A DNA stretch of 64,000 nucleotides from Planctomycetota bacterium. Lineage in GTDB: Bacteria > Planctomycetota > GCA-002687715 > CAIWVZ01. The stretch is taken from the NCBI GenBank assembly GCA_044222185.1, contig JBGANV010000005.1, positions 352,001 through 416,000 on the forward strand, read 5' to 3'. Below the pieces are notes generated by a model. That model saw nothing but the letters and a program-made list of their open reading frames with translations, was not told where the DNA came from and made no database searches. Position numbers and translations under genes: made by a program. Shown piece by piece: positions 1 through 52,386 of the stretch. Numbering within the stretch: the stretch's first letter is position 1; each line of letters begins with the position of its first letter.

Positions 1-1134
1 GAACAGCCCGGTCACCGGATCGAAGCGTTCACACAAGGAAGTGAATTGCGGGAACGACGGTCCGCCGAAGATCGACGGCGTGACGGACCCAAAGATCCCG
101 CCAGAGATGAAGACGCTCCCATCCGGAAGCTGCATCTGCGCGTGCCCGACGCGACGAAGGACCATGTTTCCGGCCGTGGAGTTCCACGTCCCCGTCACGG
201 GATTGTAGATTTCGGCGCTCAACAGGATGCCGTTCATCCGGGCCACGAACTCGGCCTGCGCCGCCGCATAGCTCGGTATGCCACCCGTCGCGAGCACCCG
301 GCCGTCGTTCAAGAGCGTGAGCCCGTGACCAGCGCGTGGCGACAGCATGGCACCGGTCAGCGCGAACGTATTCGTGACTGGGTCGTAGATCTCGCAGCTT
401 GCGGTGACGTTGCCTCCCGTCTGGATTCCGCCCGCGTAGAGGACGCGGCCGTCCTGCAGACGAACGGAGCGATGCAGCATGCGCGACTGCGCCATGGACG
501 GGCCCGGTGTGAACGAGCGCGTCATGGGGCTGAAGATCTCGGTCGAGTTGCCCGCCGTCGGGGCCAAGAGCGTCCCACCGCCGCCTCCGGCGACGACGAC
601 GTTCGTGCGGTTGTCGCCTACGTACCGCTGGAGGCTGTTGGCGGTGTGAAAACCGCGGGCGGTCGCCAGGGCGTTCGTGGTCGGCGTGAACCGGCGCTCC
701 TTGTCGAATTGGATGCGCACCGTCTTGCTGACGGAGATCGACGGGAACGGCAACGACGGATCGAGCACTGCCGCGTAGACGTAGATCGGTGGCGTGAAGA
801 TCAGGGCCGGATCATTCGGGACGAAGGCGACGGCCGTTGCGGCGCCGTTGGAATCCAACGAGAACGGGATGTGGAAGAGTGAAGGCGACGTGAAATCGAG
901 CCAGAACGTGCCCCAGCCCGGGATGACGGTCGGCCCGTAACTGAGCGCGCCGCTGATCGCCGCGGCGCCGTACGGCACGTTCACGGCCCCGAGCGAAATG
1001 GTCAGCGGCTGGCCGATGATCGCCTGGGTCGGGACGATGTAGGCCTGGCCCACACCGTTGCCGTCCTGGCACAAACCGACGGCGGCGACCACGGACGCAA
1101 GCGCGACGGACACCACGAACGACCGAGTTCGCAT
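1..1134 (-). CDS. Secreted Kelch-repeat (galactose oxidase-like propeller) protein, paralogue 1; 3' end runs off the window
   Basis: Missing from the ORF track because it has no stop in the window. Manual translation from ATG 1134 (GGAGA RBS at 1141-1145) gives MRTRSFVVSVALASVVAAVGLCQDGNGVGQAY..., with Kelch motifs (LQDGRVLYAGG, CEIYDP, RAGHGLTLLNDGRVLATGG). Collinear with the next two genes. Confidence 0.88.
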   Translation of the reverse strand, partial: MRTRSFVVSVALASVVAAVGLCQDGNGVGQAYIVPTQAIIGQPLTISLGAVNVPYGAAAISGALSYGPTVIPGWGTFWLDFTSPSLFHIPFSLDSNGAATAVAFVPNDPALIFTPPIYVYAAVLDPSLPFPSISVSKTVRIQFDKERRFTPTTNALATARGFHTANSLQRYVGDNRTNVVVAGGGGGTLLAPTAGNSTEIFSPMTRSFTPGPSMAQSRMLHRSVRLQDGRVLYAGGIQTGGNVTASCEIYDPVTNTFALTGAMLSPRAGHGLTLLNDGRVLATGGIPSYAAAQAEFVARMNGILLSAEIYNPVTGTWNSTAGNMVLRRVGHAQMQLPDGSVFISGGIFGSVTPSIFGGPSFPQFTSLCERFDPVTGLF

Positions 1135-1296
1135 GAGCACTCTCCAAAGGACGGCGGACATCCTACGCCTCCCCTGCCCGCCGAATGCAACCGGTGGATG
1201 GTTGAGACGCCGACGTTCCAGCGGTTGAGTTGCCGCCGACGCCTCCGCGTTGCATCTCAGGTGAAATTCGGCGCGGCGACGCGCTTTGGAACCGGA

Positions 1297-2928
1297 TCAG
1301 TTGTCGTAGGTGACCCAGGCTCCATTTTGGGGCGTCGCGTTCGCGGACCATCCTCCCGCGAGCAGGAACGAGCCGTCGTACAGCCGCGTGCACGTATGTG
1401 CACCGCGACCACCCGGCACCCCGGTGAGCCCGCGCTCGGGGTAGGCGCCGATGACTGGCGTCGACGTCACCGTGAGCCCGGTGTGCCGCACCACCATGGA
1501 CGTCGCGGTGGGTCCGACCATCAGGCCGGTGAGTCCGCCCGCTACCAGCGCCGAGCCGTCGGCGGCCTGGACCTGAGTGTGGAATGCCGCGGCCCATGGG
1601 AGGTTCGGGGCCGGCTGCCAGGACGTTCCGTTGAAGCGCTCGCAGGTCGAAAGCGCGAGGGTCGCGGCCTGGGACCCGACGTTGAATCCGCCGGTTACCA
1701 GCACCTCCCCGCTTGCTCCCACCAGACTCATGCCGTGAAACGCGCGCACGGCCAGCATCGACGGCCGCGGCTGGAACTGCTCCGTCACCGGGTCGAACGC
1801 TTCGCACGTCGCGACGACGTTCGGCACCGCGAGGGTGTTGTAGATCTGGGCGGTGATGTAGGAGTTCGCGGTCGCACCACCGGCGGCTCCGCCCGTGATC
1901 AGGACCGAGCCGTCAGGCATCAGAAGCTGCGCGTGGCCGACGCGAGCCGAAGACATCGGCGCCGCGACGGGGCTCCAGGTTCCGGCGCCCGGGTCGTAGA
2001 TCTCCGCCGAGTTCTGGGCCGAGTTCATGGCCATCAGGAAGTCGACGTTGGCCGCGGTGTAATCGGCAAGTCCACCGGTCGCGAGCACGCGGCCGTCGTT
2101 CAGCAGCGTGAGCCCATGGCCCGCACGTGGGTGCGCCATGCTCCCGGTGGCCGTGAACGTGTTCGACGCGGGGTCGTAGATCTCGCAGCTGGCCGTCGCG
2201 GGTCCGGCCGGAGTGATGCCGCCCGTGTAGAGAACGCGGCCATCCTGGAGCCGCACGCTGCGGTGGACGATGCGCGCCTGTTGCATGTCCGGGCCGGGCA
2301 CGAAGCTCCGCGTGAGCGGCTGATAGATCTCGGAGGTATTCGTCGCCGTGGGCGCGAGCAAGGAGCCCGCACCGCCGCCGGCGACGACGACCGACGTTCG
2401 GTTGTCACCGGCATATCGCGTCAGGCTGTTCGCCGTATGGAGGCCGCGCGCGGTCGCCATGGCGTTCGTCGTCGGGCTGAAGCGCCGCGCGTAGTCGAAT
2501 TGCACGCGAACGGTCTTGCTCACCGAGATCGGCGGGAAGGCCAGCGAGAGGTCCACGACGATGGCGTAGAGGTAGACAGGCGGGAACGAAAGGAGCGCGG
2601 GGTCGTTCGGGATGAACGCGACCATCTGCATCGCACCGTTGGCGTCCAACGTGACCGGGATGTGGAACAGGGTGGGTGACGTGAGGTCGAGCCAGAACGT
2701 GCCCCATCCGGGCACGACCGTCGGGCCGAAGCTCGCGGCCCCGCTCAGGCCGGCGTCACCGTTCGGGACGTTGGCCGCACCGAGGCTGATCGTGAAAGGC
2801 TGGCCGATGATCGCCTGCGACGGGTCGATGTAGGCCTGCCCCTGGCCATTCCCCTCCTGGGCCGGAGAACTCGTGGCGGCATATGCGAACACCAGTGCCC
2901 ACGCGAGGAAACGTCCGCAGCTGTTCAT
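1297..2928 (-). CDS. Secreted Kelch-repeat protein, paralogue 2
   Basis: C-terminal part of ORF 1297..3483. Likely start ATG 2928 (alternative 2934), then signal peptide MNSCGRFLAWALVFAYAATSSPA|QEGNGQG and repeated Kelch blades (R.xH...L.DG.VL..GG, EIYDP). Confidence 0.88.
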   Translation of the reverse strand: MNSCGRFLAWALVFAYAATSSPAQEGNGQGQAYIDPSQAIIGQPFTISLGAANVPNGDAGLSGAASFGPTVVPGWGTFWLDLTSPTLFHIPVTLDANGAMQMVAFIPNDPALLSFPPVYLYAIVVDLSLAFPPISVSKTVRVQFDYARRFSPTTNAMATARGLHTANSLTRYAGDNRTSVVVAGGGAGSLLAPTATNTSEIYQPLTRSFVPGPDMQQARIVHRSVRLQDGRVLYTGGITPAGPATASCEIYDPASNTFTATGSMAHPRAGHGLTLLNDGRVLATGGLADYTAANVDFLMAMNSAQNSAEIYDPGAGTWSPVAAPMSSARVGHAQLLMPDGSVLITGGAAGGATANSYITAQIYNTLAVPNVVATCEAFDPVTEQFQPRPSMLAVRAFHGMSLVGASGEVLVTGGFNVGSQAATLALSTCERFNGTSWQPAPNLPWAAAFHTQVQAADGSALVAGGLTGLMVGPTATSMVVRHTGLTVTSTPVIGAYPERGLTGVPGGRGAHTCTRLYDGSFLLAGGWSANATPQNGAWVTYDN

Positions 2929-3094
2929 GTCCATACCCCCGTCGAGAATCGACGGTCTCCGTGCGAGACCTCGGTTTCGAGCGCGGCACCGCGCCTCCGC
3001 CTGACGCGCGTGCAAGACCCGTGAAGGGCAGCAGATTAGTCGATGAGTCCGGGTCTCGCCAGTGCCCGCGGGTGAAGTGCCGGGGTTGCGGCGC

Positions 3095-4702
3095 TCAGAA
3101 ATCGCAGGACGTGAAGGCGTCCGTGAGTCCCGCGCCGGTGTCCCAGCCGCCTGCGACGACGTACGACCCGTCAAAAATCCGCGTAAACGAGTGCCCGCCG
3201 CGGGGGCGGACCACGCCCTGACCTCGCTCAGGATGGATGCCCAGACTGAAGCTTTGAACGACCGCGCTCCCGTCATGGCGATAGACGAGGGCCGTCGCCG
3301 TGGGATTCGTTGCGAAGTCCGAGATGAGCCCGCCTGCGATGATCGCCTCCCCGGTCTGCGGCGAACGAAGCTGAGTATGGAACGAGGTCGGCGTCGGGAG
3401 GCTGGCCACCAGGGTCCAGCCCAAGCCCGTGAGCTTCTCGCAGACGGGCGTCGCCTCGCAGATCCCGAGGTTCGGGTTCCCAACGATCCCGCCGGTGACC
3501 AGGAGCTCGGTCCCGGCGCCGACGAAGCTGATTCCGTGGAAGGCGCGGGAGAGCGTCATCGTCGGACCCGTCGAGAACGTGGCGGTCGCGGGGTCGAAGT
3601 ACTCACACGTCGGCGTCATGACCGGGATCACGGGGCCGACCAGCGTGGACGTTCCCGTGGCGATGCCGCCGGAGATCAGCACGACGCCGTTGGGCAATAC
3701 GATCTGCCCGTGGCCGGCACGCGGACTCGCCATCACGCCGGTGAGCGACGTCCATTGGCCCGTCGCCGGCGTCCACACCTCCGCCGAGTTCATGATCGAC
3801 GTCATGCGGGTGTGGAAGTAGGTCGCGGCGCCCATGTAGTCCGGGACGCCGCCGGTCGCGAGGACACGGCCGTCGTTCAGGAGCGTCACCGCGTGGGCGG
3901 CGCGCGGCCAGTTCATGGACCCCGTGGGCGACCACGTGTTCGATGCCGGGTCGTAGATCTCGCACGCGCCCGTCACGACGCCAGCGGTCTGGACGCCGCC
4001 GGAAACGAGGACGCGCCCATCCTGCAGCCGGACGCACCCGTGGAATGCGCGCGCATCGTTCATCGGAGGTGCGGGGACGAACGCGTGCGTCACCGGCCGA
4101 TACAACTCCGCGGAGGCCGTGGAGACCGGATTCAGCAGGTCGCCGGTGCAGCCGCCGGCAACGAGGACCGCATTGCGGTTGTCACCGTCGAATCGAGAGA
4201 GGCTCTGGGCCGAGTGGAAACCCCGTGCCGTTCCCATGGGCGACGCCGTGGCGGTGTATCGGCGTTCGTAGTCGAATTGGACGCGGATCGTCTTGCTCAC
4301 CGAGAGGGACGGAAACGGCAGCGAGGGGTCGACGACGGCGGCTTGGAGGAAGACGGGCGGGGCGCCAAGCAGCGCCGGGTCGTTGGCGATGAAGACGGGA
4401 ACGATGGCCTGGCCGTTGGAGTCCAGCGTGTACGGGAGATGGAACACGATCGGCGCGTTGAGCCCGATCCAGAACGTGCCGTAGCCGGCGATCGTAGTTG
4501 GGCCGAGGCTGGACGAACCGCTCAGGATGGCTTGTCCGTTGGGGACGTTCGGCGCGCCCAGGGCGAAGAACAGCGGCCGTCCGATCAGCGCCTGGCTCTG
4601 TTGGAGATATGCCCCGCCCTGACCGTTGCCGTCCTGGGCGCGGACGGATGCCTGCGCGATGAAACAGGCAACGAAGAGCGTGACGAGACGGCGCATCTCC
4701 AT
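3095..4702 (-). CDS. Secreted Kelch-repeat protein, paralogue 3
   Basis: C-terminal part of ORF 3095..6997. Start ATG 4702 after a GAGGG RBS, signal peptide MEMRRLVTLFVACFIAQASVRA|QDGNGQG, Kelch blades as in the paralogues. Confidence 0.88.
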   Translation of the reverse strand: MEMRRLVTLFVACFIAQASVRAQDGNGQGGAYLQQSQALIGRPLFFALGAPNVPNGQAILSGSSSLGPTTIAGYGTFWIGLNAPIVFHLPYTLDSNGQAIVPVFIANDPALLGAPPVFLQAAVVDPSLPFPSLSVSKTIRVQFDYERRYTATASPMGTARGFHSAQSLSRFDGDNRNAVLVAGGCTGDLLNPVSTASAELYRPVTHAFVPAPPMNDARAFHGCVRLQDGRVLVSGGVQTAGVVTGACEIYDPASNTWSPTGSMNWPRAAHAVTLLNDGRVLATGGVPDYMGAATYFHTRMTSIMNSAEVWTPATGQWTSLTGVMASPRAGHGQIVLPNGVVLISGGIATGTSTLVGPVIPVMTPTCEYFDPATATFSTGPTMTLSRAFHGISFVGAGTELLVTGGIVGNPNLGICEATPVCEKLTGLGWTLVASLPTPTSFHTQLRSPQTGEAIIAGGLISDFATNPTATALVYRHDGSAVVQSFSLGIHPERGQGVVRPRGGHSFTRIFDGSYVVAGGWDTGAGLTDAFTSCDF

Positions 4703-9328: not shown

Positions 9329-9441
9329 CGCGGATCTGACGGCTCGCGACGAACGACGGAGCCGAGCACGACCGTTCGGACATGCCGCCCGCAGCCATCG
9401 CATCGCTATGATCACGCGACCGCCATCCCGGAGGTCCCACG

Positions 9442-11049
9442 ATTCACCGATCCGATCCCAATCGGCCCACGCGATCCGTCGCTGGTTGCGCGGCACTCGG
9501 GCTCCTGTGTGCTTCGCTCGCGAACGGGCAGTACCTCCAGGTGGTGAGCCAAACCGCGCCCGCTCCGACCACGAACTACGCCTTCGTCGGCAGCCTCGCC
9601 GACGTCAACGGGAACGGATCCCCCGACCTCTTCGTTCAGGCGTTCACCGCGCTCTCGATCGTCGTCGACCCGCGCACGGCGACGACAGCACAGCTCGCCG
9701 CGCCGACGCCGATCACCGCATGCGGCGAGCACGCGATCGGGAACGTCAACGGCGACCCGTTCCCGGACCTCGTCGTCGCGAGCGTCTCCGCGCTGTTCAT
9801 CCTGCTCGGTAACGGCAACGGGACCTTTCAGGTGCCGATCCAGGTCGCCACGCTCGGGAGCATCGGCCCCGTCGGCAGTTCCGGCGTGGCCGGGCCGATG
9901 GAACGGGCGCTGAACATCACGGACATCAACGGCGACGGACTCGATGACGTCGTCGTCGCGGGGGCGAGCGGGCTCGGCGCCTGGGTGAATACCGGCACGG
10001 CGTGGACGAACGTCTGGAGCTTTCCATACACGACGCTGAGTCTCTCTCCTCTCGTGATGCCCGGCCGCTACGTGCAGTTCGCGGATTGGAACGGTGATGG
10101 TCGAAAGGACCTGGCGCTCGGCATGAGCCTGCCGCCGATCCAGACGCAGATCTTCGTCTGGTACGGCGTCGCCGGCGGATTCACGACGACGCCGGCGGTC
10201 CTCGTCACGCCCGCACCAGCCACGTCGTCCGAGACGATCGGGTGCGGCGACGTCGACGGTGACGGGTTCGCCGACATCATCGTCATGACGTACGGCCCGG
10301 GAACCTTCGGGCCCGTTCTCTTCGTGCGCTACGGCTCGCCGGCCGGTCCTGGCGCGCCGGTCGCCATCCCGTCGACGTCCAGCTCGATCTACGGCGGCGA
10401 GACGGACGTCGTCGACGTGGACGCCGACGGGAACAACGACATCGTCGTGCAGGGGTTCGGGTATCCCGCGTCCGTGCTCGTGCGAAACGCCGGCAACCGC
10501 AGCCTGATCTACGCCCCGTTCGGCCCCCCGGTCGCGGCAGGCAACGCCGGGGGCGGCCTCCTGATCTTCGCCGACATGGACGGAGACGGAGATCCCGACG
10601 CCGCGTCCGTTCCGGGAATCGGCAACTACTTCACCGTCCTCGACGACACCGCGCTGCTCGCCAGCGGATGCGCGGGAGCGGGCGGGGTCCCCGTGTTTCC
10701 CATCGGATGTGCGGCGCGCGGGAACGCGAACTTCCAGCTCGGCGTGGCGAGCGCAGCCGCCAACGCCACGGCAGTTCTGGGTGTGTCGACGGCCTATGCG
10801 CCCCTCACCGGTTGCGGCGTCGGACCCGTGTTCAGCCCGGCGACCACGGTGCTCCCCACGCCGACGCTTGGTGTGTTCACCACGTCGGCCACGGGCTCCG
10901 CGAGCCTCGCCTTTGCGCTTCCGAACGTCCCCGCGATTCCGACCGTCCGGGTCTACGCGCAGTGGGCCGTCGCCGACGCATCAGGGACCTTCACGGCGGG
11001 CGCGACGAACTGGTCGCTGACGAAGGTGCGGACGATCGACGTCTTCTGA
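9442..11049 (+). CDS. Secreted FG-GAP/VCBS-repeat protein with C-terminal putative sorting module
   Basis: Repeats DVNGNGSPDL, NVNGDPFPDL, DINGDGLDDV, DWNGDGRKDL, DVDGDGFADI, DVDADGNNDI, DMDGDGDPD. The ORF track starts at GTG 9541, but the frame is open upstream through a signal peptide to ATT 9442, which follows GGAGGT. Confidence 0.8.
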   Translation: MHRSDPNRPTRSVAGCAALGLLCASLANGQYLQVVSQTAPAPTTNYAFVGSLADVNGNGSPDLFVQAFTALSIVVDPRTATTAQLAAPTPITACGEHAIGNVNGDPFPDLVVASVSALFILLGNGNGTFQVPIQVATLGSIGPVGSSGVAGPMERALNITDINGDGLDDVVVAGASGLGAWVNTGTAWTNVWSFPYTTLSLSPLVMPGRYVQFADWNGDGRKDLALGMSLPPIQTQIFVWYGVAGGFTTTPAVLVTPAPATSSETIGCGDVDGDGFADIIVMTYGPGTFGPVLFVRYGSPAGPGAPVAIPSTSSSIYGGETDVVDVDADGNNDIVVQGFGYPASVLVRNAGNRSLIYAPFGPPVAAGNAGGGLLIFADMDGDGDPDAASVPGIGNYFTVLDDTALLASGCAGAGGVPVFPIGCAARGNANFQLGVASAAANATAVLGVSTAYAPLTGCGVGPVFSPATTVLPTPTLGVFTTSATGSASLAFALPNVPAIPTVRVYAQWAVADASGTFTAGATNWSLTKVRTIDVF

Positions 11050-29281: not shown

Positions 29282-29333
29282 GCGAACGCCGCTCGCCCGG
29301 TTTGGAGGCCGCGGTGATAGGCTCGCGCGGCAG

Positions 29334-31732: not shown

Positions 31733-34700
31733 ATGACGCGCGTCCTTGCCGGCCTGTGGCTGCTGAGTGTGTCGACGGCCGCACAGGCGACGCTCGTCAG
31801 CAGCAACGTCTCGACCAATCCCAATTACGCCAACATCCAATTCGACTTCTATACGAAGTACACCGCACGCCTCGCGCCGGACGGACTGACGGCGTTCGTC
31901 ACGGCCACTTCGAACAACCGCGTCCAGATCGCAGCGGAGACACGAACGGCCATCGGGCAGCCGTTCACGACGCCGTCCTTCATTCCCGAGTTGCTTGCCC
32001 CAAATACGAGTCGCATGTGCATCACGGTGACCGACGGCGGTCGGCGGATGTTCTTCTACGACTTCGACTCCACGGCCGGAGCGGAACATTGGTACGTCAT
32101 GGAGACCACGCGCTCGTCCCAGGCAGCACAGTGGGGGCCGGCCCAGCAGGTCTGGGTCTTTCCAGCGCCGAGCGCGCGCTTCGCATCATTCGTGACGTAC
32201 TTCTCCAACCACGTCGGCACCGCACCCGACGATGGACTGGAGCTCTTCATCACCCTCGATCCGACCTGCTGCACTTGTCAGACGGCGCCGTACGTCCTGC
32301 GGCGGAGTTCGCCTGGATCTCCCTTCACGTCGTTTGGCCAGGTGACCGAGTTCCCATCCTGCGGCGGATACCTGGATCATGTGCAGGCACTGCTTTGCAG
32401 TCCCGACGGGCTGACCATGCTCTACAGCACCGGGACCTCCGCGACCATGTTGTTCCTGCGGGCGTCGCGCGCGAGCGCATTCGTGAGCACGTCGTCGCAG
32501 ATCGTCACGCCGGGCCTAAACTGCATGACCGTGATGTCGGGGACGTCGGATTGGCGCGAGCTTCTCGTGTGGAGCCAGTTCTCCTGTCTCACGCCGGGGT
32601 ACAAGCTCGGCCGGACCACGGTGAACGGACTGGTGAACACGGGACACCTGTCGTCGACATCCAGCGCGGATCTCGTCTATCGCGACCTGAGCGCTGCACC
32701 CGGAACGGCCGCCGGCGGAGCGATCGCGTGGGGCTTCACCCCTGGGACCACCAGCGGTGGTTCAACATGGCCGCTGACGAACGACGCGCTCTTCCAGCAG
32801 ACGTACCTCACGAATCTGCCTGGCTTGACGGCGGGATTCCTCACGGCGCTCGACTCGCTGGGCGAAGCTCACGCGGCCGTCGGCCCGCTCCCACCGCAAA
32901 CCGAGGGAGACACGTTCTACTGCGCGTTCGCCACGCTGAACGCGTCGAGCCCGTCCGCGAGCGTCGTCCGGATGTCCAATGCCATTGCCATCCGCATGCA
33001 GCCCGCGTCGGCGGCCGCCCAGGTGCAGCACCCATGCGCGACGGGCACAGGGTGCACCGCGCCGCCCGTCGGCCCGGGGCCCTACGGCGTCCAGTACGGA
33101 CCGCCCGTCGTGCTCCCGCAAGGCCCCCTGAGCTTCGCCGACGCCGTCCATGCGCCCGTGCAGGAGGGCACCTACTACAGCGCCGCATCGACGTTCTGCA
33201 ATCCCTGTGACGCCCTGGGTGCTCCCGACTACGACTCGGGCGACCCTCTGCAGCCTGGTCCCGGGACCGGACACGTGGCGACGCAGCAGCACGGCGCGTA
33301 TTCGCTCGGACATCGCGGTTCGATCGAGCTCGCGTTCACGGACAATGCGCTGACGAACTCCGGATCCAGTCAGCCCGACCTCTACGTCTGGGAAGCCGGC
33401 AACCACGCCGAGGACTTCTTCGTCGCGTTGCACCCGGCTGACGCCTATACGACGACTGTCATGGCCGGGACACCGCCAGGTCTGGACACCGACGGCAACT
33501 TCCCGCTGCCACTCGTGACGGGTCCGTCGTTCGTCCACGGGATCGACATCGACCAGAGCCTTCCCGGGTTCAGCGCTGGATCTCTGCGCTTCGATCGCGT
33601 CAAGCTGAAAGACTCGCCGGGATGCCCGCTCCCGCCGTGTGAGCCACCGACGACATCGGAGACTCAAGCCGGTGCCGACATCGATGCCGTGGCGGCCGTC
33701 GGATTCCCACCGGTCTCGGGGCCACCCCCATTCGTCAGCCTCGTGACGCCGTCCTGCGGCAGCACCGTGGGCGGAACGACGATCACGATCAACGGAGCGT
33801 CGTTCACCGTTCCTGGAGCCGTCGCCGCACCCACCGTGGCGATCGGAGGTTTCCCAGCTCAGGTCGTCTCGTTCACGTCGACTCAGATCGTCGCCGTCAC
33901 GCCGCCATCTCTTCAAATCGGCAACGCCGTCGTCACGGTCACGGCTCCGACTGGCATCGCGACGGCGTCCGCACCGTTCGTGTACACCGCTCAACCGGCC
34001 ATCTCATCGGTCACGCTCGGACAGTCGTGCCCGGTCGTCGGGCAGCCAACGGCCATCACGATCACGGGCACGGGATTCCTTCCGACGTGCACGACGGCAT
34101 TCGTGAACGGCTCCCCCATCGTCGGCACGTCCTCCGGCGGGCCGAACATCACGTCCACCACGTTGACCGGTCAATTCACGGCCGCGACGGCCGGTCCGAT
34201 CACGATCTCGCTCCTGAATCCCGGCTGGCCTGTCGCGCAGTTTGGCGTGCCTGGTTTCGCGGCGAACGCATCGGACGTCGTCCTGACGCAGCCGGTCACC
34301 ATCGACGCGAGCAATCTCGGGGTCTTCACCAATGCGTCGGTCATCGTCTGCAACACCACGCTGACCATCGCGACGCCGACCACCCTGCAGTCGATCGCGC
34401 TCGTAGCCGGTTCGACGCTGACCCACCCTGCCGGGATCACGGGTGGCGCAACGGTCACGGTGTCGGGCAACGCGTACATCGATGCCGGAAGCGCGGTCGA
34501 CGTCAGCGGCCGTGGCGCACTCAGCGCAGCCAGTGGCAGCACCGGTGGAAGTCACGGTGGGCTCGGTGGGCTCGCGGCGACGAACGCCGCTCACGGGAGC
34601 ATCGTCGCTCCCATGGACTGCAGCGCCGGCGGACGCGGTGGTGGCGCGCTGCAACTGATCGTCACGGGAACGCTCACCCACAACGAGGTCATCCGCTCGA

Positions 34701-37700: not shown

Positions 37701-40564
37701 ACCGCACGATCCTCAGCGGCACCGTCACCCAGTTCGCCAACGTCCTCGTGAAGGGAGCGGCCACGCTCTCTCATGAGTTCGCCGTCTCAGGACTGTTCCT
37801 CGATGTCCCCGGCACCATCATCGTCGAGGCCGGTGCCGCCATCGACGCGAGTGGGTACGGCAACACGGGCGGCGGCAACATCACGGCCGGCGGAAGCCAT
37901 GGCGGCCAGGGCGGCGGAGCCAGTGGCGCGGTCCACGGCTCCATCGCCAACCCCACGGACTTCGGGACCGGAGGCGGCATGGACTGCAACGCAGGCGGCC
38001 GCGGCGGTGGAGCCCTCCACCTGCGTTCAGCCTCGGGCCTCATCACCATCAACGGCGCCGTCCGCGCCAACGGGTTCAACGCGACGGGATGCAACGCCGG
38101 TGGTGGATCCGGCGGCAGCATCTGGATCGAAACGCCTCTCCTCACGGGTGCCGGTGCCATCACATCCAACGGCGGAAACGGTAACGGCGGTGGCGGCTGC
38201 GGCGGTGGCGGCGGCCGCATCGCGGTGTTCTCGCCGGTCCCGATCTCGGGCGTCGCGCTGACGGCGTTCGGTGGGAACGGAGTGCAGCGCGGCGGCGCCG
38301 GGACGATCGACGTCGTGTTGGCCGGCCAGCATGGAACGTTCGTCGTCGACAATGGTGGTTCGAGCGGGAACGTCACTCCGATCACCGGACCCGTAACCTT
38401 CGACGCCGATCTGATCGTCACGGGCGGCGCGACTCTCCAGATTCCCTCGGGAACGCTGACCTACCTCGGCAACGCCGTCCTCGGCACTGGCCAACTCTCG
38501 GGGTCGGGGACACTGGACGTCGATGGAAGCGTCACCTGCAACGGAATGGCTCTGGCGTCGACGCCGCCTTCCATCCGCTGCGGCGGCAACTGGACTGCGG
38601 ACGCCTCGTTCGCTCCGACCGGTGGCACCATCGAACTGGACGGTGCGGCGCCGAGCACCATCGGCGCGTCGACCTCGGGCGGCGTCGTCAAGTTCTTCAA
38701 CCTCGTCATCCGCAATGGCGTGCGTGGTGCGATGAACTCTCCCGTGGTGAGCGCATCGAGCATCCTGGTCGATGCCAGCGGAACGATCGACGTCGGCACC
38801 GGCCAGGCCCTGACGATCAATCGCGCGCCGGCCCCCACGACCGTCACGATCGACGGAGTCCTATCCGTCGGGACCGCGCAGCTGCTACTTGGCCCAACGA
38901 CGGCACTGAGCGTGACGGCCGCGGGAACCTTGCGGCTCCTGGGCTCGCCCTCGACACGTGCCACGGTGGCGGGCACCGCAGGCGGCGGCTTCGGGTTGAC
39001 GGTGAACGGAACCATCGCAGCCCGCAACTTCGCCGTGCGTGACGTGAACTCGAGCGGCGTCGTCATACCGGCGACCGCGACGATTGCCCCCTTCCCCAAC
39101 GACTTCCGTGGTGGAACGTTCGACCTGCGTGCGGGTGCGACGGCGGGTTCGACGCTCCTCGACATCCAGAGACCGGCGCCGACCACTCTCGCGTACCTGG
39201 ATTTCCGGAACACGCCGGGCGCCGCGGGCGTGACGAACGTCCGCTGCACGAGCGGTGCCCCGATCACGCTGAACAACTGGACGGGGCCATTCGGCGGTTC
39301 CGCGTTCGAGTCCGATCCGGGGAATCGAGTCACCTGGAACGCAGAACAGCACACGACGCTCGCATCGTTTCGAGCGCGTGGACTCGCCGAGAAGGCCGAC
39401 ATCGTCTGGACGACGTCGGTCGAGGTCGACGTCGCCGCGTTCATCGTCGAGCGCGCAAGCACGTCGCTTGGCCCATGGATGACGATCGCGAGTTTCTCTC
39501 CGGCGGGTCCATCGTTCTATGGGATGACCGACGCGGGCCTCACGGCAGGACAGACGTACTACTACCGCCTGTCCGAGCGGCTCACGCATGACCCGGTGAA
39601 CGAGCTCGCCACCGGCCAGGCGACGCCATACAGCTCCGCGCCACCCGCCAACGTCTTCAAGGTCGGCGCGGGCGGGCCCTACGCGACGATCCAATCGGCG
39701 ATCAGCGCCGCGACGGCCCCGACGTCGATCGTCTGGGTGACACCGGGTACGTACCCCGCGTTCATCGTCGACGGCAGTGCTCCGCCCAACCTGAAGGTGA
39801 TCGGCGGCGGATCGGGTCCCGTCATCATCGATACGACGGCTGCAGCGGTGCTGATCTCGGGCGTGCCGGCGGGTCGAACGGTCGAGATCGCGGCGCTCTC
39901 CATCGGTTCCACCACGTCAGGCCACGACGCCGTCGACATCGTCGGCTGCGGGGGCGCCATCGTCCTCGACGCCCTCACGGTGATCGGAGGCTCGGGAATG
40001 CGCGGAATCGACGTCGCCGCGTCGACCGGTGTGGCCATCCAGAGATCTCAGATGTCGGGGACTCCAGGCCTTCGGCTCGCGGGAGGGTCCAACGTCGCGG
40101 CAAGCCGTGGGTCGTTGGATGCTCTCGCAGTCATCACGGGATCGAGCCTCCAGGTCACCGATCTGGTGCCGGGTGCCGTCACGGTCGACGGGACTCAGAC
40201 CCTCGTCGCCAACGCGGGACTCATGCCCGACCTGAACCTCCCACGGTTCCCCTCGCTCGGCGCCTACGAATCGTTCGACCTGACGACGTTCCCGAACAGT
40301 GTCGTCCTGATCGGGATCTCGACGGGTGCGGGATTCATCGGAGGTCTTGCCCCGATCCAGATGCCGTTCCTTCTCGACCCGGCAAGTCTGGCGATCCTGC
40401 CGATCCTTGCGGCTGACGCCACCGGCCACCTCGGATTCGGGTTCGAGTTGGAACCGAACGTCGCACTCCTCGGATTGACGTTCGAAGTGCAGGTGACTTC
40501 ACAGGACCCGTCCACGGGCGTGATCCGATTCTCGAACCTCGCGACGATGGTGGGACTGCCGTGA
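31733..40564 (+). CDS. Giant (~2,940 aa) secreted surface protein/adhesin: N-terminal propeller-like region, IPT/TIG domains, tandem Gly-rich repeats, FN3-like domain, beta-helix, C-terminal sorting-like module
   Basis: Signal peptide MTRVLAGLWLLSVSTAAQA at ATG 31733; IPT motif (VTPSCGSTVGGTTITINGASF); repeated GGSHGG/GGRGGG/GGGSGGSIWI/GGRIAV modules; YYYRL FN3-like motif; YATIQSAI. Segment 35274-35570 is transiently frameshifted. Confidence 0.85.
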   Translation: MTRVLAGLWLLSVSTAAQATLVSSNVSTNPNYANIQFDFYTKYTARLAPDGLTAFVTATSNNRVQIAAETRTAIGQPFTTPSFIPELLAPNTSRMCITVTDGGRRMFFYDFDSTAGAEHWYVMETTRSSQAAQWGPAQQVWVFPAPSARFASFVTYFSNHVGTAPDDGLELFITLDPTCCTCQTAPYVLRRSSPGSPFTSFGQVTEFPSCGGYLDHVQALLCSPDGLTMLYSTGTSATMLFLRASRASAFVSTSSQIVTPGLNCMTVMSGTSDWRELLVWSQFSCLTPGYKLGRTTVNGLVNTGHLSSTSSADLVYRDLSAAPGTAAGGAIAWGFTPGTTSGGSTWPLTNDALFQQTYLTNLPGLTAGFLTALDSLGEAHAAVGPLPPQTEGDTFYCAFATLNASSPSASVVRMSNAIAIRMQPASAAAQVQHPCATGTGCTAPPVGPGPYGVQYGPPVVLPQGPLSFADAVHAPVQEGTYYSAASTFCNPCDALGAPDYDSGDPLQPGPGTGHVATQQHGAYSLGHRGSIELAFTDNALTNSGSSQPDLYVWEAGNHAEDFFVALHPADAYTTTVMAGTPPGLDTDGNFPLPLVTGPSFVHGIDIDQSLPGFSAGSLRFDRVKLKDSPGCPLPPCEPPTTSETQAGADIDAVAAVGFPPVSGPPPFVSLVTPSCGSTVGGTTITINGASFTVPGAVAAPTVAIGGFPAQVVSFTSTQIVAVTPPSLQIGNAVVTVTAPTGIATASAPFVYTAQPAISSVTLGQSCPVVGQPTAITITGTGFLPTCTTAFVNGSPIVGTSSGGPNITSTTLTGQFTAATAGPITISLLNPGWPVAQFGVPGFAANASDVVLTQPVTIDASNLGVFTNASVIVCNTTLTIATPTTLQSIALVAGSTLTHPAGITGGATVTVSGNAYIDAGSAVDVSGRGALSAASGSTGGSHGGLGGLAATNAAHGSIVAPMDCSAGGRGGGALQLIVTGTLTHNEVIRSNGANGTACNAGGGSGGSLWIQAASLTGLGTITANGGSGSGGVGGGGSGGRIAVISPANTSAFTYAVSGGAGLGGRGGAGTIYTQFNGATLGDLVVDNGGNAGNRTILNGTVTQFANVLVKGAATLSHEFAVSGLFLDVPGTIIVEAGAAIDASGYGNTGGGITAGGSHGGQGGGASGAVHGSIANPTDFGTGRHGLQRRRPRRWSPPPAFSLGPHHHQRRRPRQRVQRDGMQRRWWIRRHLDRNASPHGCRCHHPTAETVTAVAAAAVAAAASRCSRRSRSRRRVDCVRWNGVQKGGAGTIYTLIGAATIGDLVVDNGGTTVGNMTDVNVDGVINVFQNVAVHGGGVLMLSGTPVFASLVVDTSGIVTHLVGPASGLTLQVLGPATIASSGSVDVSGRGALSAASGSTGGSHGGLGGLAATNAAHGSIVAPVDLGSGGGMDCSAGGRGGGALQLIVTGTLTHNGVIRSNGANGTACNAGGGSGGSLWIQAASLTGLGTITANGGSGSGGGGGGGSGGRIAVISPANTSAFTYVVSGGAGVAGRGGAGTIYTQFNGATLGDLVVDNGGNAGNRTILSGTVTQFANVLVKGAATLSHEFAVSGLFLDVPGTIIVEAGAAIDASGYGNTGGGNITAGGSHGGQGGGASGAVHGSIANPTDFGTGGGMDCNAGGRGGGAIHLRSALGSITINGAVRANGFNATGCNAGGGSGGSIWIETPLLAGTGAITCNGGNGSGGNGNGGGGGRIAVFSPIPISGVALTAFGGNGVQKGGAGTIYTLIGAATIGDLVVDNGGTTVGNMTDVNVDGVINVFQNVAVHGGGVLMLSGTPVFASLVVDTSGIVTHLVGPASGLTLQVLGPMTIASSGSVDVSGRGALSAASGSTGGSHGGLGGLAATNAAHGSIVAPVDLGSGGGSGGSLWIQAASLTGLGTITANGGSGSGGVGGGGSGGRIAVISPANTSAFTYAVSGGAGLGGRGGAGTIYTQFNGATLGDLVVDNGGNAGNRTILSGTVTQFANVLVKGAATLSHEFAVSGLFLDVPGTIIVEAGAAIDASGYGNTGGGNITAGGSHGGQGGGASGAVHGSIANPTDFGTGGGMDCNAGGRGGGALHLRSASGLITINGAVRANGFNATGCNAGGGSGGSIWIETPLLTGAGAITSNGGNGNGGGGCGGGGGRIAVFSPVPISGVALTAFGGNGVQRGGAGTIDVVLAGQHGTFVVDNGGSSGNVTPITGPVTFDADLIVTGGATLQIPSGTLTYLGNAVLGTGQLSGSGTLDVDGSVTCNGMALASTPPSIRCGGNWTADASFAPTGGTIELDGAAPSTIGASTSGGVVKFFNLVIRNGVRGAMNSPVVSASSILVDASGTIDVGTGQALTINRAPAPTTVTIDGVLSVGTAQLLLGPTTALSVTAAGTLRLLGSPSTRATVAGTAGGGFGLTVNGTIAARNFAVRDVNSSGVVIPATATIAPFPNDFRGGTFDLRAGATAGSTLLDIQRPAPTTLAYLDFRNTPGAAGVTNVRCTSGAPITLNNWTGPFGGSAFESDPGNRVTWNAEQHTTLASFRARGLAEKADIVWTTSVEVDVAAFIVERASTSLGPWMTIASFSPAGPSFYGMTDAGLTAGQTYYYRLSERLTHDPVNELATGQATPYSSAPPANVFKVGAGGPYATIQSAISAATAPTSIVWVTPGTYPAFIVDGSAPPNLKVIGGGSGPVIIDTTAAAVLISGVPAGRTVEIAALSIGSTTSGHDAVDIVGCGGAIVLDALTVIGGSGMRGIDVAASTGVAIQRSQMSGTPGLRLAGGSNVAASRGSLDALAVITGSSLQVTDLVPGAVTVDGTQTLVANAGLMPDLNLPRFPSLGAYESFDLTTFPNSVVLIGISTGAGFIGGLAPIQMPFLLDPASLAILPILAADATGHLGFGFELEPNVALLGLTFEVQVTSQDPSTGVIRFSNLATMVGLP
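34496..38287 (+). repeat. Intragenic tandem repeat, ~1.4-kb unit, ~2.7 near-identical copies
   Basis: GTCGACGTCAGCGGCCGTGGCGCACTCAGC starts at 34496, 35876 and 37292 (spacings 1380 and 1416 bp). Copies 1 and 3 carry deletions relative to copy 2. Confidence 0.95.
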
Positions 40565-40695: not shown

Positions 40696-41265
40696 ATGTC
40701 TGATGCGCTGATCCCGAGCCCTGAAGATGTCGTCCGCACGTTGAGCGACGGCCTGCCGCTCGACTCGGCCCAGCTTCTGCCGCTCGTCTATGGCCGCCTC
40801 CGACGATTCGCCGAGGCGTTGTTGGGCCGAAGCGCCGCCGGCTTCACGCTGAGCCCGACAGACCTGGTCCACTCCGCATACCTGAAGATTTGCGGATCGG
40901 GCGTCGTGACCTTTGAAAGCCGCTCCCACTTCTTCCGCGTCGCCGCCCGCGCCGTCCGCCAAGTGCTGAGTGACCATGCGCGACGCCGCAGCTCGCAAAA
41001 GCGGGGCGGCGGGAAGGCGGCACTCCCGGTGGAGGACACGATCCTCGGCGATGCGGTCCGCGACGAGACGCTCGTCCAGCTGGACGACCTCTTGAGTGAG
41101 CTCGCGGCGGCCGACGACGTGGCCGTGCGGATTCTCGAGCTCCGCTTCTTCGGCGGACTCTCCGTGGAGGAGATCGCGACGGTCCTCGGGGCGTCGAAGG
41201 CGACGGTCGAGCGGCGATACCGAGCGGCGAAGGCCTGGCTCGCCGCGGAAATGCACGCGACGTGA
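40696..41265 (+). CDS. ECF sigma-70 factor, kinase-associated (TIGR02999-like) type
   Basis: LLPLVYGRLRRFA, TLSPTDLVHSAYLK, SRSHFFRVAARAVRQVLSDHARRRSSQKRGG and ELRFFGGLSVEEIA; lies directly upstream of a Ser/Thr kinase. Confidence 0.92.
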   Translation: MSDALIPSPEDVVRTLSDGLPLDSAQLLPLVYGRLRRFAEALLGRSAAGFTLSPTDLVHSAYLKICGSGVVTFESRSHFFRVAARAVRQVLSDHARRRSSQKRGGGKAALPVEDTILGDAVRDETLVQLDDLLSELAAADDVAVRILELRFFGGLSVEEIATVLGASKATVERRYRAAKAWLAAEMHAT

Positions 41266-41286
41266 CGTCCGGGAGCACGAGCACAG

Positions 41287-46369: not shown

Positions 46370-46424
46370 GAATCCGCAACCGGAGCCACACCCGGCTCCA
46401 CTCGATCCACAAGGAGTCACGCTC

Positions 46425-47783
46425 ATGAATCGCAGTCTGTCCACACTCGTCGTCTTCGCAGTTCTCGCCGCAGCCGCCTCCGGCCAGACCGGCATCCTCG
46501 TCGGCCAGGCGATCTCCCTCAATCAGCCGATTCCGCCGCAGGGGACCGGTGGCACATGTGGAACGCCGCAGTCGACGGCGGTCGTCGGCTTCACAGTGAC
46601 CACGCTCGGAGTCGTCCACGCACCGGCCATCACCCTCAACATCGACCACACGTTCGTCGGTGACCTCACGATGACGCTCTCGCACGGCGGAACGTCGGTG
46701 ACCCTCTCGAACGGGAACTCCTTCTTGGGACTCCCCGCGACGCGCGAGCTGCACGGCAACTACACCTTCCAGGATTCAGCGCCGACGGCGTTCTTGAACG
46801 CCCCGTGGACCGGGGTCACGTTCAACCCGGGCGCGTACCGTCCCGCGTCGCCGCTCGCCGTCTTCAACGGCATGGCGATCGCCGGCACGTGGACGCTCAC
46901 GATCTGCGACGAGGCGCCCAGCGACTCGGGGGTGCTCCACAGCCTCGAAGTCGTTTGCGAGTTCGGCGGCGCTGCCGTGGCGGACGTCGGTCTGCCGGCC
47001 GCGATCCCGCCGCAGGGAACCGGCGGTGTGTGCTCGTCGCCCGGCAACACGACCGTTCGCACGGTGAACATCGGCACGCCCGGACGCGTCGCCTACATGT
47101 GGGCCGATCTGAACATGAACCACACCTTCTCGAGCGACCTCCGCATCTCCATCAGCCACAACGGCGTCACACGCATGCTCTTCGACGGCGACAACGACGG
47201 AACGGGCAGCGCCGCCTTCGCCGGGACGTACTCGTTCAACTCCGGACCAGGTCCCCAGATCAACGGCGCGAGCGTCAGCGGCGGCACGGTGCAGCCCGGG
47301 AGCTACGCGGCGAGGGAGTCGCTCTCGGTCTTCACCGGCATGGAGATGAGCGGGGCGTGGACCCTCAGCATCTGTGACCAGTACTCGGTCGACACGGGGA
47401 GCTTGAACGGCCTCGTGCTGCGCCTCGCGAGCGAAGGGTTCACGCTCTCGCTTGCGCAGCCGTCCGGGTCGGCGTCGATCTCGGCGCATGACGCCAACGG
47501 GTCCGCAGTCGGCAACGGCTACTTCAACGCGTTCACGACGACGGCCGGTGCCTATCCCTACGGCTGGTTCGAGGGCATCGACATCCTGCAAAGCGAGCTG
47601 CTCTTCCAGTTGAACCTGCCGCTGCCGCTCTTCGCCGGCACGCTCGGCGCCAACGTCGATGCGACGCCGACACTGACTGCGACGATCCCGGGCGGCATCA
47701 CGCTCTACGGCGTCGCCCTCGAGATCGGCGGGAACCAGATCCGCCAGGTCGCTCCGCCGATCGCCTACACGACGGCCCCCTGA
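46425..47783 (+). CDS. Secreted non-catalytic protein with two proprotein-convertase P-domains and a C-terminal GWF.GIDI module
   Basis: AAGGAG RBS; signal peptide MNRSLSTLVVFAVLAAAASG|Q; two IDHTFVGDL/NHTFSSDL...G.W.L.ICD....D.G.L domains. Confidence 0.85.
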   Translation: MNRSLSTLVVFAVLAAAASGQTGILVGQAISLNQPIPPQGTGGTCGTPQSTAVVGFTVTTLGVVHAPAITLNIDHTFVGDLTMTLSHGGTSVTLSNGNSFLGLPATRELHGNYTFQDSAPTAFLNAPWTGVTFNPGAYRPASPLAVFNGMAIAGTWTLTICDEAPSDSGVLHSLEVVCEFGGAAVADVGLPAAIPPQGTGGVCSSPGNTTVRTVNIGTPGRVAYMWADLNMNHTFSSDLRISISHNGVTRMLFDGDNDGTGSAAFAGTYSFNSGPGPQINGASVSGGTVQPGSYAARESLSVFTGMEMSGAWTLSICDQYSVDTGSLNGLVLRLASEGFTLSLAQPSGSASISAHDANGSAVGNGYFNAFTTTAGAYPYGWFEGIDILQSELLFQLNLPLPLFAGTLGANVDATPTLTATIPGGITLYGVALEIGGNQIRQVAPPIAYTTAP

Positions 47784-47852
47784 TTCGTCGCGCGGCTCGC
47801 GGCGTCCGCATCAAGACGCCGCCAGAACCTCGCTTCACGAAGGAAGAACATC

Positions 47853-49214
47853 ATGCTTCGCAACGACACGCTCCGACTCTCGGCTCTCATCCTCGTCCTC
47901 ACCTCTTCACTGGCGGCCCAGACGGCGGCGACGCGCGCGTTCCATTTCACGCCCAACGCCACGATCCCACCCAGCGGATCGGGCGGCGCCTGCGGCACGA
48001 CCTCATCGACGTTCACCGTTCCCATGCCGATTTCGGCCGTGGGACTCGTGAGCAGGGTGAGCGTCACGCTCGGAATCGACCACACGTACGTCGGTGACCT
48101 GGACATCTCCCTCCAACACGATGGCGTGACCGTTCCGCTGTGCAGCGGCTCCAACGCCTCCAACCCGACGCTCCAGCTCCACGGGCAGTACACGTTCGCG
48201 GATGCAGCGGGCGCGGCGTTCGTGCTCGCGTCCTCGGCGGGATCTCCGCCCACGATCGTGCCCGGCACGTACCGTCCGACGCAATTCCTCTCGGCGTTCA
48301 ACGGCACGAGCGCTGGCGGAGTGTGGAGCCTCACGGTGTGCGATCAAGCGTCCGCGGACGTGGGCGTGCTCCACGACGTCACCGTCACGGTCGGACTCGC
48401 GGGGCCGACGATCATCGACCCCGCGCCGCCCTCCGCGATTCCGCCCACCGGCACCGGCGGCACCTGCGGCCTGCCGTCGACGACGTTCACGCGAACGATC
48501 GGCGTGCCAGCGTCCGGTCACGTGGCTGAAGTGCGAGTCCGGCTGAACATGGGCCACAGCTGGGCGTCCGACCTCGTCATCACCCTGAGCCACGACGGCG
48601 TCTCGCGGCTGTTGTTCAACGGGCCGGGCTCGGGGCTGAGCGACCAGGATCTCTCGGGCAACTACACGTTCGCGGACACGGACGGCGTCTCCATCGCGAC
48701 CGGCGTCGTCAACGGAGTCGTCCAACAAGGGACGTACCTGCCGTCCGCGAGCTTCGTCCCATTCCGGGGTCGGGAGGCCGCGGGCACGTGGCAGCTCACG
48801 GTGTGCGACCGCGCGTCGAGCGACGTGGGTTACCTCTCCGCGTTCGAACTGGACCTGGTGATGGAGGGCTTCACGATGGCGATCCAGCAGCCGGCGGGCG
48901 CGGCCTCGGTGTCGACCCGTGACCAGAACGGCGCGCAGGCCGGTGACACGTACTTCAACGCGCTCACGCTCACGGCGGGCAGCTACCCCTACGGGTGGTT
49001 CCACGGAATCGACATCGGCTTCGACGAACTCACGTTCCAGTTGAACCTGCCGATCCCGTTCTTCAACGGCACGCTCGATGGTTCGGTGACGGCCGTGGGC
49101 ACGATCCCGGGACCGATCCCGGGCGGCATCCACGTCTATGCCGTCGGGATCGACTTCCGCGCGGGCGCCGCAGCGCAGACGTCGGTGCCCGTCAGCTACG
49201 TGACGGCGCCCTGA
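47853..49214 (+). CDS. Paralogous secreted tandem P-domain protein
   Basis: Same architecture as the previous gene ([23 protein letters not shown]; C-terminal YFNA...[11 protein letters not shown]...FQLNLP). Confidence 0.87.
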
Positions 49215-49893: not shown

Positions 49894-50043
49894 GGTTCGA
49901 GCGAATCGCCGCCCGGCCCCGTCGATCTGAGCGACTTTCGGGGCGGAAGCAGTTATCGGCGCGGACGATACGAAGCCCGGCAAGACGCCCGATCCGCGAA
50001 TCGAGAATCGTTCGGGAAGCTTCCGGCATCGGAAAGGGTTGTG

Positions 50044-50670: not shown

Positions 50671-50703
50671 ACGAACGCGCGCCGCCAACGGCGCGCAGCC
50701 GAC

Positions 50704-52386
50704 TCACACGCCGAGTTCGAGGTCCAGACCGTTGGTCACCTGGTAGATGGGATTCTGTGACGCCGGAACCAGGATGGCCTGAAGGCGGAAGGTCACGCAT
50801 TCGACGGCGGGATCGCTCGGAAGCGGCCCCGTCAACGACCAACCGCCGCTGGCGTTCGTCGTGAATGCCGTGAGGATGTCGAGCCCCAGGACCCAGAGGT
50901 AGCCCTGGCACCCTCCAACGAGTTCGGTCGGCCCGGGCGGAATGGCACTCACGAGGAGGAGCCCCGCGGTCGACGGAACGGCCCCCGAGACCGACAACGT
51001 GCCGATCGAACCGAGGACTGGCGGCGTGCCGCTCAGTGATGGCCCGGGGAGACCGCCATAGGAGCATCCGAAACCCACCGTGAACACCAGCGCGGTGTGC
51101 CGGACGACGGACAGCTTGAACGTCCCTTGCTGGCCGTTGTAGCCAGCCACGCGAATGAAGTACGCATGGCCCGCGATCGTCGGGAACGTGACGTCGGTCA
51201 GGAATCCCTGCGGCCCGCATCCCGAATCGTCGGCACACCCGACGATGTCCCCCGCCGAAGGACACGTGGGCGAATCATAGACCGTGATCTGAGAGTCCGT
51301 CATCGTGCCCCCGGCCGCGACCGTGGGACACGTGGAGACCGTCGCCTCACCGGTGCATCCGGCGATCCAGAAGAAGAAGACGTCGCTTCCTCCCAGGTTG
51401 CCGAGCGCACCGCACGCGGTGGCGAACGTCGGTGAATTCGAGAGGGTCGCGCCGACGTTCGTGTACAGACCCGACGCCGGGTTGAGACCCTCGGCGAGTT
51501 GGATCGCGCCGAAGCACTCGTCGTTCGGGAGCTGGACGAGGAGCGCGATGAGCCCGGTCGCCGTCCGGTTCGAGGAATCCGTCGCCGTGAGGGGCAGGTT
51601 GTAAGGAGCTGCCTGCACGCCGGGCGGCAGGACGTAGGCGAGCGAGAACGTGCGGTCGCCGGCCACGGCGTCGCCATGCGTTCCGTCGTCGAAGAACGTG
51701 GCGTTGGCGGATCCGCCGACTGCGGCGAGGTTCGCGTGCACGCTCACGGCGGTCGGCGGGTTGGGTGGTGCCGTCGCCGTGACGGCGGCCGTGAGCAGAA
51801 CGTTGTTCGCGATGACGACCGCGCTCGGCGACGCCGCTCCGGCCACCTGGAGAGTCGGGGCGGTCACGACGGCGAGCGTGTAATCCTCCGTATTGCCGAA
51901 TCCCGCGCTGCCGCAGGCGGACGGTGGCCCTCCCGGGCAGCATCCGTCGAACACCAAGCGCACGCGCATGCGGACCGACGCGGCGCTCCCAGCAGGCGGC
52001 GTGACGTTCGCGACGAACGTCCGCGTGGTTCCGCCGCCGGCCGTCAACGAAAGCGGGATCGTCTCGTTGGAATCGAGGAAATCACCGTCGGCGTTCCAGT
52101 CGCAGAACGCGGTGACCTGATCCCCGGGGAGATAACGGCTCACGGTGACCGTCATCGGTGACGGAACGCCGGGCACGAGCGACGTCGACGTCGACGTGTA
52201 ATCCTCGTAGCCAGGCGGCGCGACACACGCGGAGCTTCGGTCGATGGACGCGAGCTGCACGCGGCTGATGTACTCGTCGCTCCCGCAGTTGAATCCCGTG
52301 TTGGGAGCGCTGCAGTACTGGGCGCGTGCGACTGGAACGCTGAGGACGATCGTCGCACACAGTGCGGCGAGTTGGGACGACTTCAT
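50704..52386 (-). CDS. Secreted GEVED-domain protein with choice-of-anchor-X-like domain and C-terminal putative sorting module
   Basis: EYISRVQL...DWNADGDFLD.NE...RMRV...GNTEDYTL (GEVED); FFDDGTHGDAVAGD; PNDEC...DVFF module; signal peptide. Confidence 0.85.
   Translation of the reverse strand: MKSSQLAALCATIVLSVPVARAQYCSAPNTGFNCGSDEYISRVQLASIDRSSACVAPPGYEDYTSTSTSLVPGVPSPMTVTVSRYLPGDQVTAFCDWNADGDFLDSNETIPLSLTAGGGTTRTFVANVTPPAGSAASVRMRVRLVFDGCCPGGPPSACGSAGFGNTEDYTLAVVTAPTLQVAGAASPSAVVIANNVLLTAAVTATAPPNPPTAVSVHANLAAVGGSANATFFDDGTHGDAVAGDRTFSLAYVLPPGVQAAPYNLPLTATDSSNRTATGLIALLVQLPNDECFGAIQLAEGLNPASGLYTNVGATLSNSPTFATACGALGNLGGSDVFFFWIAGCTGEATVSTCPTVAAGGTMTDSQITVYDSPTCPSAGDIVGCADDSGCGPQGFLTDVTFPTIAGHAYFIRVAGYNGQQGTFKLSVVRHTALVFTVGFGCSYGGLPGPSLSGTPPVLGSIGTLSVSGAVPSTAGLLLVSAIPPGPTELVGGCQGYLWVLGLDILTAFTTNASGGWSLTGPLPSDPAVECVTFRLQAILVPASQNPIYQVTNGLDLELGV

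Follow-up and report, generated by a model that had tools for sequence, protein, structure and literature searches.

What is the role of a sequence segment that recurs on secreted proteins otherwise unrelated to one another? The question is raised by a 64,000-nucleotide stretch of a Planctomycetota bacterium genome (GenBank assembly GCA_044222185.1, contig JBGANV010000005.1, positions 352,001 to 416,000 of the forward strand; hereafter the window). An initial annotation, made from the letters alone, described such a segment at the C-terminus of four proteins (an FG-GAP protein, a propeller protein, a giant adhesin and a GEVED protein) and directly after the signal peptide of three Kelch proteins, proposed a lineage-specific sorting or anchoring module, and suggested that profile matches be counted in this genome and its relatives. 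All seven segments are present at these places and are included in one module superfamily (110-135 amino acids in length, by profile searches). Because the module is found on proteins nearly all predicted to be exported and, at the N-terminus, stands in for a lipid anchor, it is likely to be a new kind of surface tether.

Between individual segments the similarity is weak: Smith-Waterman z scores (against 500 shuffles) are 3.4-6.0 for most cross pairs, and the tail of the giant protein gives non-significant values (-0.5 to 1.9) against the GEVED, FG-GAP, propeller and two Kelch segments. Profiles nonetheless converge. In the genome containing the window (G000; 7.08 Mb, 93.8% complete), 45,997 six-frame open reading frames (ORFs) were searched, and 4,727 genes were called with a purpose-built codon model; the family searches used profile-anchored iteration in place of drifting re-alignment. 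Five jackhmmer seeds (FG-GAP, propeller, giant, GEVED and Kelch 1) recover 139-219 ORFs, with 121-184 members in common, and a family-A profile of 131 positions matches 218 of the 45,997 ORFs at E<1e-3 and no reversed decoys. The tail of the giant protein, subfamily c31, escapes this profile, its score against the c31 profile being a self-score by construction; compared with family A, c31 gives an HH probability of 98.4 (E 6.1e-15). Family B, seeded from a P-domain protein of the window, comprises 70 ORFs in which every copy is C-terminal; its relation to family A is weak (HH probability 68, E 4.8e-5, computed on an alignment that had drifted), and subfamily c13 bridges the two (HH probability 95.8 to A, 66.5 to B).

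With twelve profiles combined, 464 of the 4,727 called genes carry the module, against 0 reversed decoys. Copies are C-terminal in 394 cases, N-terminal in 41 and internal in 34, and in 394 of the 464 carriers the module lies no more than 15 residues from the stop. Two proteins consist of three modules only and, by inspection, about a dozen of a signal peptide and one module. Mean column identity is 21%, with at least ten subfamilies within this single genome, and the module is almost free of Lys (0.2% of residues). A scan of 66 copies against Pfam and NCBIfam (E<=0.1) found no common family, only five stray single-member matches, and a PDB sequence search gave no match below E 0.7; the ESM Atlas matches are unnamed clusters only, most commonly from Planctomycetota (score 0.96-0.97). 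No description of the domain was found in literature searches, whose coverage of subscription papers is poor, and the main text of the Saltatorellota preprint (10.1101/817700) contains neither the word 'secretion' nor 'S-layer'. The module is thereby confirmed as one uncatalogued superfamily, larger than first thought: the original list of carriers was correct in its seven segments, and had missed two subtype-B modules and an internal copy in the giant protein.

The distribution supports the lineage restriction that had been suspected, within the Planctomycetota sampled. Searches with a 66-row alignment gave 27-132 matches, among the matches listed, in each of 22 same-family or same-order genomes, and 22-25 in two of eight other genomes of the phylum. 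In a phylum sample of 121 genomes (G000 included), 25 have at least 12 matches and two have one or two; the remaining 94 gave no match. Since the module-rich genomes are probably related, tests of co-occurrence are confounded. Of the best 20 matches fetched from other genomes, 18 end no more than two residues from the stop and two are N-terminal.

The module is predicted to be a generic immunoglobulin (Ig)-like beta-sandwich, in keeping with the fold first suggested: an AlphaFold model of the GEVED-protein copy is an eight-stranded sandwich with a pLDDT of 95.8. Foldseek returned no match at E<=0.001, and the highest-scoring VIA matches, at Z 8.1-8.2, are generic domains of Ig, macroglobulin and Fn3 type. 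In neither search did a match specific to cohesins, carbohydrate-binding modules or the type IX secretion system (T9SS) stand out; for both models (A and B), the 50 VIA rows listed include no cohesin, and the C-terminal domain of PorZ (5m11 residues 686-776; Z 7.2, root-mean-square deviation 2.6, 79 aligned) scores no better than dozens of Ig domains unrelated to it. The fold comparison that had been envisaged points to Ig domains in general. Two cysteines covary (both in 60, neither in 59 and one in 27 of 146 rows), which suggests a disulfide, and three strands (profile columns 47-50, 73-77 and 104-106) are hydrophobic on both faces. A homodimer prediction gave 'no answer' (score 0.02, mark 0.42) and was not used either way.

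That all carriers have Sec signal peptides holds for the most part: 431 of the 464 pass a permissive test, which 44% of non-carriers pass too, and the other 33 look like miscalled starts or fragments, one kinase fusion excepted. That fusion, a single ORF (G000:C14:150418-153957), starts with a Ser/Thr kinase, a transmembrane (TM) helix and a TPR-like region; these are joined to another segment resembling a signal peptide, then to a passenger and, at the C-terminus, the module. In the FG-GAP gene the signal-peptide-like stretch (window 9412-9560, + strand), which ends before Gln, lies upstream of position 9541 and has no in-frame ATG, GTG or TTG upstream; the gene may start with ATT at 9442, or a sequencing error may be present. 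Gln right behind the signal peptide is indeed common among carriers (110 of 227, by a test blind to Gln, over a background of 2.6%), but it is found genome-wide (133 of 408 non-carriers) and is therefore not specific to them. PMC5837995 describes a Q-rule as specific to Bacteroidetes, and the Gln starts of G000 resemble it. No type I glutaminyl cyclase (PF05096) was found in G000; the type II cyclase was not searched for. As first noted, carriers have no TM anchor: the last 40 residues include a hydrophobic window in 2 of 374 C-terminal carriers and a basic tail in 24, in contrast to the sortase-type PEP-CTERM and GlyGly-CTERM tails, terminal surface-display determinants on Sec cargo that are linked to type II secretion and include a TM helix and a basic tail.

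The module fills the slot of sorting and anchoring domains on exported proteins. Among 60 sampled carriers, passengers include FG-GAP, Kelch, GEVED, DUF7948/SBBP, TIG, Ig, CHRD, M10 peptidase and cytochrome c peroxidase domains; GBD_T9SS_assoc and CARDB were seen as well, and there are passengers of adhesin, lectin and propeller type. These passengers are unusually poor in charge, with a median K+R+E of 4.8% (n=446) compared with 17.2% in other proteins with a signal peptide and Gln (n=593; 17-18% across comparison groups), and rich in Gly+Ser (20.4% compared with 14.4%, and 13-14% across groups). In homologous stretches K+R+E is lower on the carrier side in 47 of 56 pairs, about 19 of which pair kinases with one fusion ORF. 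Cheaper residues are favoured in extracellular over periplasmic proteins (PMC2932507), and the composition of carriers fits, if it does not prove, an extracellular location.

The main result bearing on function is an exchange with lipid anchors. The C-terminal passenger of lipoprotein L081 of G000, a conserved protein with no Pfam or NCBIfam family, is present on 12 proteins. Nine of these (two in G000, seven across G001, G005, G006, G009, G062 and G108) have a lipobox, a Gly-rich tether and a longer N-terminal Ig stalk, and no module; the remaining three begin with an ordinary signal peptide, after which comes the module (E 3.8e-24, 3.7e-20 and 3.5e-6). As the loci were fetched for their passenger match, 9:3 should not be read as the proportion in the population. 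G006 and G062 each contain both forms. For the Kelch proteins of the window, too, there is a related lipoprotein that lacks the module (BLASTP E 3e-19 to 9e-15). A lipobox is found in one of the 464 carriers. Among soluble non-carriers with a signal peptide it is found in 110 of 1,100, and among the charge-poor ones in 8 of 83 (p 1.6e-6 for carriers against this charge-poor set). The module thus shares the N-terminal slot and the passengers of a surface lipoprotein anchor (lipobox Cys and Gly-rich tether), but it is a folded protein domain rather than a lipid and works at the C-terminus too.

Two of the 12 charge-poor lipoproteins of G000 belong to OmcA/MtrC (above cut-off) and have the same Cys-Gly tether; proteins of this family are surface-exposed and have been implicated as type II substrates (PMC1974784). 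The decaheme OmcA/MtrC-family lipoproteins L131 (G000 C1:2026002-2029031) and L132 (C7:112225-115158), one of which adjoins a predicted beta-barrel gene, are possible loci of extracellular electron transfer. L081 itself was considered as a scaffold for the module and rejected: with the query used, it has orthologues in four of four same-order genomes tested, weak matches in two of the 12 module-rich genomes from elsewhere and none in 22 others, and it proved to be a relative that shares a passenger with carriers, without being shown to be a partner of the module.

We give about an even chance to the reading that carriers are exported by Sec, likely with the help of type II secretion, and then anchored non-covalently to the surface by the module, as an alternative to a lipid anchor. 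The proteins would be exported by Sec and cleaved before Gln, would fold in the periplasm, and would cross the outer membrane through the type II system; the module would then bind outer-membrane lipid, lipopolysaccharide or a surface partner, probably via its two-faced hydrophobic sheet and a Pro/Gly hairpin. Since a folded domain would do the binding, not a cleaved tail, the module would be free to sit at either end of a protein or to be repeated. Of the two alternatives first offered, an undescribed export pathway or a surface-attachment pathway, the evidence leans towards attachment and away from the former, because the module works at either end, alone and in triplicate, and replaces a lipoprotein anchor. 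An ordinary type II operon is present, in which GspE and GspF pass the cut-off; two GspD-like secretins and GspG fall just short of it, and a GspH-like gene is included. G000 has eight secretins, among them two tandem pairs. Secretin pairs lie at C1:1541589-1552520 and C7:76435-90831 of G000, the type II operon has tandem secretins, and relatives with genomes of 2.4-3.3 Mb retain five or six.

Several observations weigh against surface anchoring. A GspD-like N-domain query matches 16 of 16 module-rich genomes but also 18 of 20 module-free ones, so the link to type II secretion is one of availability only. Bacteria with a T9SS can carry a given passenger as a lipoprotein or as tailed cargo, and the exchange described above therefore cannot separate an anchor from an export tag. 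Only 2 of the 12 charge-poor lipoproteins of G000 have a passenger in common with a carrier, and both signal-peptide and lipobox calls are heuristic. A further 75 charge-poor, non-lipoprotein signal-peptide proteins, such as the S8 protease of the window, have no detected module, and in a relaxed search 12 of them score, compared with 4 when reversed. In 85% of carriers the module occupies the extreme C-terminus, as export signals do. Finally, the analysis identified no ligand or partner, and the surface location is a prediction from sequence.

The principal rival, an unlikely one in our estimate, takes the module as an address for export. It would be a folded tag read by one of the secretin systems or by an undescribed translocon, the cargo then being released or attached by other means. 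The C-terminal bias, in G000 and among the best matches from other genomes, the many-or-none distribution across the phylum, the eight secretins with their tandem pairs, and the overlap of passengers with T9SS cargo (GEVED, DUF7948/SBBP, GBD_T9SS_assoc, CARDB and M10) would all be expected of such a tag, whereas 75 N-terminal or internal copies, proteins made of one or three modules only, and the replacement of lipobox and stalk by the module would not. Nor is a dedicated machinery apparent: a heuristic screen revealed no large barrel candidate, and PorU-like C25 peptidases do not track the module (11 of 17 module-rich and 12 of 20 module-free genomes), for which reason a C25 sortase was rejected as its machinery. 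The link to an ExbBD operon, offered as speculation in the initial annotation, was also abandoned, as the 1221-aa operon partner is full-length in one of three module-rich genomes and its C-terminal domain is also present in both of two module-free genomes.

Two further rivals are improbable, and we rank them alike. The module might self-assemble into a mosaic, S-layer-like coat in which each subunit bears a different passenger. Ig domains build some S-layers, and the module-only and triple-module proteins, the very low charge, the strands hydrophobic on both faces and a weak Foldseek row (Deinococcus HPI, E 0.025) are compatible with a coat; the diversity of the module, at 21% identity and in at least ten subfamilies, is hard to fit to one lattice, and no abundant dedicated subunit was identified. 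Alternatively, the module might tether periplasmic proteins inside the envelope, to peptidoglycan or to the inner side of the outer membrane. Since lipoproteins are in many cases oriented towards the periplasm, the exchange alone does not fix the side of the membrane, and one ORF fuses a kinase and a TM helix to a module-bearing part. That ORF, however, has an internal signal-peptide-like segment, the passengers are of adhesin, lectin and propeller type, and the composition of carriers differs sharply from that of other Gln-start exported proteins, within homologous stretches as well.

Surface anchoring by the module can also be set beside known systems. The T9SS type A C-terminal domain (TIGR04183/Por_Secre_tail) is likewise a small Ig-like sandwich that tails hundreds of Sec-exported, Gln-start proteins with overlapping passengers; the module differs in length (~125 compared with 70-80 aa), in the absence of a family-profile match in 66 copies and of a conserved Lys, and in occurring at N-terminal, internal and tandem positions. 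That it is a highly diverged T9SS tail served by an unrecognised T9SS is very improbable, as the Ig-like fold with its PorZ match and the Gln starts shared with Bacteroidota (PMC5837995) are offset by the ties of that match with unrelated Ig domains, by PorV (0 of 5 genomes, positive control detected), by PorP and SprA (no match in G000, though the controls for both were silent), and by a Lys content of 0.2%, set against the Lys that is conserved in the last strand of T9SS tails (PMC11285876).

Type I dockerins (PF00404) resemble the proposed role in docking non-covalently at protein ends and in their lineage-specific expansion. They are helical, bind calcium and pair with a cohesin, and GC-type dockerin tails occur in other Planctomycetota; the module consists of beta strands only, a PF00404 search of G000 gave 0 matches (control detected in 2 genomes), and no scaffold was found, a screen for internal repeats among 224 charge-poor non-carriers returning one unrelated match. 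PEP-CTERM (PF07589) also has 0 matches in G000, with a silent control. Expansions to at least ten dockerin or PEP-CTERM matches are found in 4 of the 20 module-free genomes, in none of the 17 that are module-rich and in neither of the 2 borderline ones (p 0.11), a pattern that is no more than suggestive. The Solibacter C-terminal domain TIGR03437, SLH and CWB2 are lineage-restricted terminal modules on many exported proteins, and SLH and CWB2, placed at either end of a protein, attach to polymers of the envelope; none matches the 66 copies in Pfam or NCBIfam, SLH being compared by family scans alone, and no match to a catalogued carbohydrate-binding module stood out in the Pfam, PDB-sequence or Foldseek searches. 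By the tests applied here, the module does not qualify as a T9SS tail, a dockerin or a PEP-CTERM domain; if it anchors carriers as proposed, at about even odds, its role would parallel that of dockerins, of SLH domains or of the part of the T9SS tail responsible for anchoring.

Module copies in the window (positions numbered from its first nucleotide)
Feature	Position	Strand	Support and remarks
Subtype A, directly after signal peptide of Kelch protein 3	703..1098	-	profile E 8.7e-24; gene runs past window start
Subtype A, after signal peptide of Kelch protein 2 (1297-2934)	2494..2880	-	E 5.2e-23; Kelch Pfam matches
Subtype A, after signal peptide of Kelch protein 1 (3095-4702)	4271..4651	-	E 5.0e-23; Kelch Pfam matches
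Subtype A, C-terminal, FG-GAP protein (frame 9412-11049)	10645..11043	+	E 1.0e-19; FG-GAP_3
Subtype A, C-terminal, NHL-type propeller protein (25011-26471)	25014..25406	-	E 1.4e-18; NHL
Internal partial copy, giant protein (31733-40564)	32726..33004	+	E 2.4e-8
Divergent subfamily c31, C-terminal, giant protein (2943 aa)	40160..40561	+	c31 vs A HH 98.4, E 6.1e-15
Subtype B, C-terminal, P-domain protein 1 (46425-47783)	47394..47777	+	family-B E 3.3e-28; c13 bridge
Subtype B, C-terminal, P-domain protein 2 (47853-49214)	48825..49208	+	family-B member; AlphaFold pLDDT 89.3, Ig/Fn3-like
Subtype A, C-terminal, GEVED/choice-of-anchor-X protein (50704-52386), copy modelled	50707..51096	-	E 4e-28; pLDDT 95.8; GEVED, NF041940

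Other genes of the window include the S8 protease with P-domains (11112-14597, - strand), which is charge-poor (0.08) and without the module, while a close relative elsewhere in G000 has it. An exported protein (5096-6664, +) has two repeats that probably resemble beta-carbonic anhydrase in their motif. Directly downstream of the giant gene (40696-43983, +) are a probable ECF-like sigma factor and a Ser/Thr kinase. Near the window's end (61711-64000, +), a 716-aa protein that probably resembles TerB-domain proteins is followed by an ATPase-like gene, presumably as a TerB/ATPase defence-island operon. Elsewhere in the genome, exported proteins in 32 ORFs end in a different C-terminal domain that has no name (cluster c4) (for example C11:7842-12362 and C6:644344-648694), 15 of which also bear the module further upstream.

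The module is present on about 10% of the genes of G000, and in tens to more than a hundred copies in every relative tested, yet it has had no family model; with a profile in hand, one could delimit which proteins make up the cell surface in a large part of the Planctomycetota, most of it uncultured. It is possible, with our confidence just short of even, that this whole branch displays about one tenth of its proteome on the cell surface by means of an uncatalogued, position-independent Ig-like anchor interchangeable with a lipid anchor, needing neither sortase nor T9SS. If true, this would be a general surface-display system for diderm bacteria, and a portable anchor functional at either end would serve surface-display uses. 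The exchange with lipid anchors opens a direct experimental route to the question of how adhesins and enzymes reach display on these cells when no T9SS is at work.

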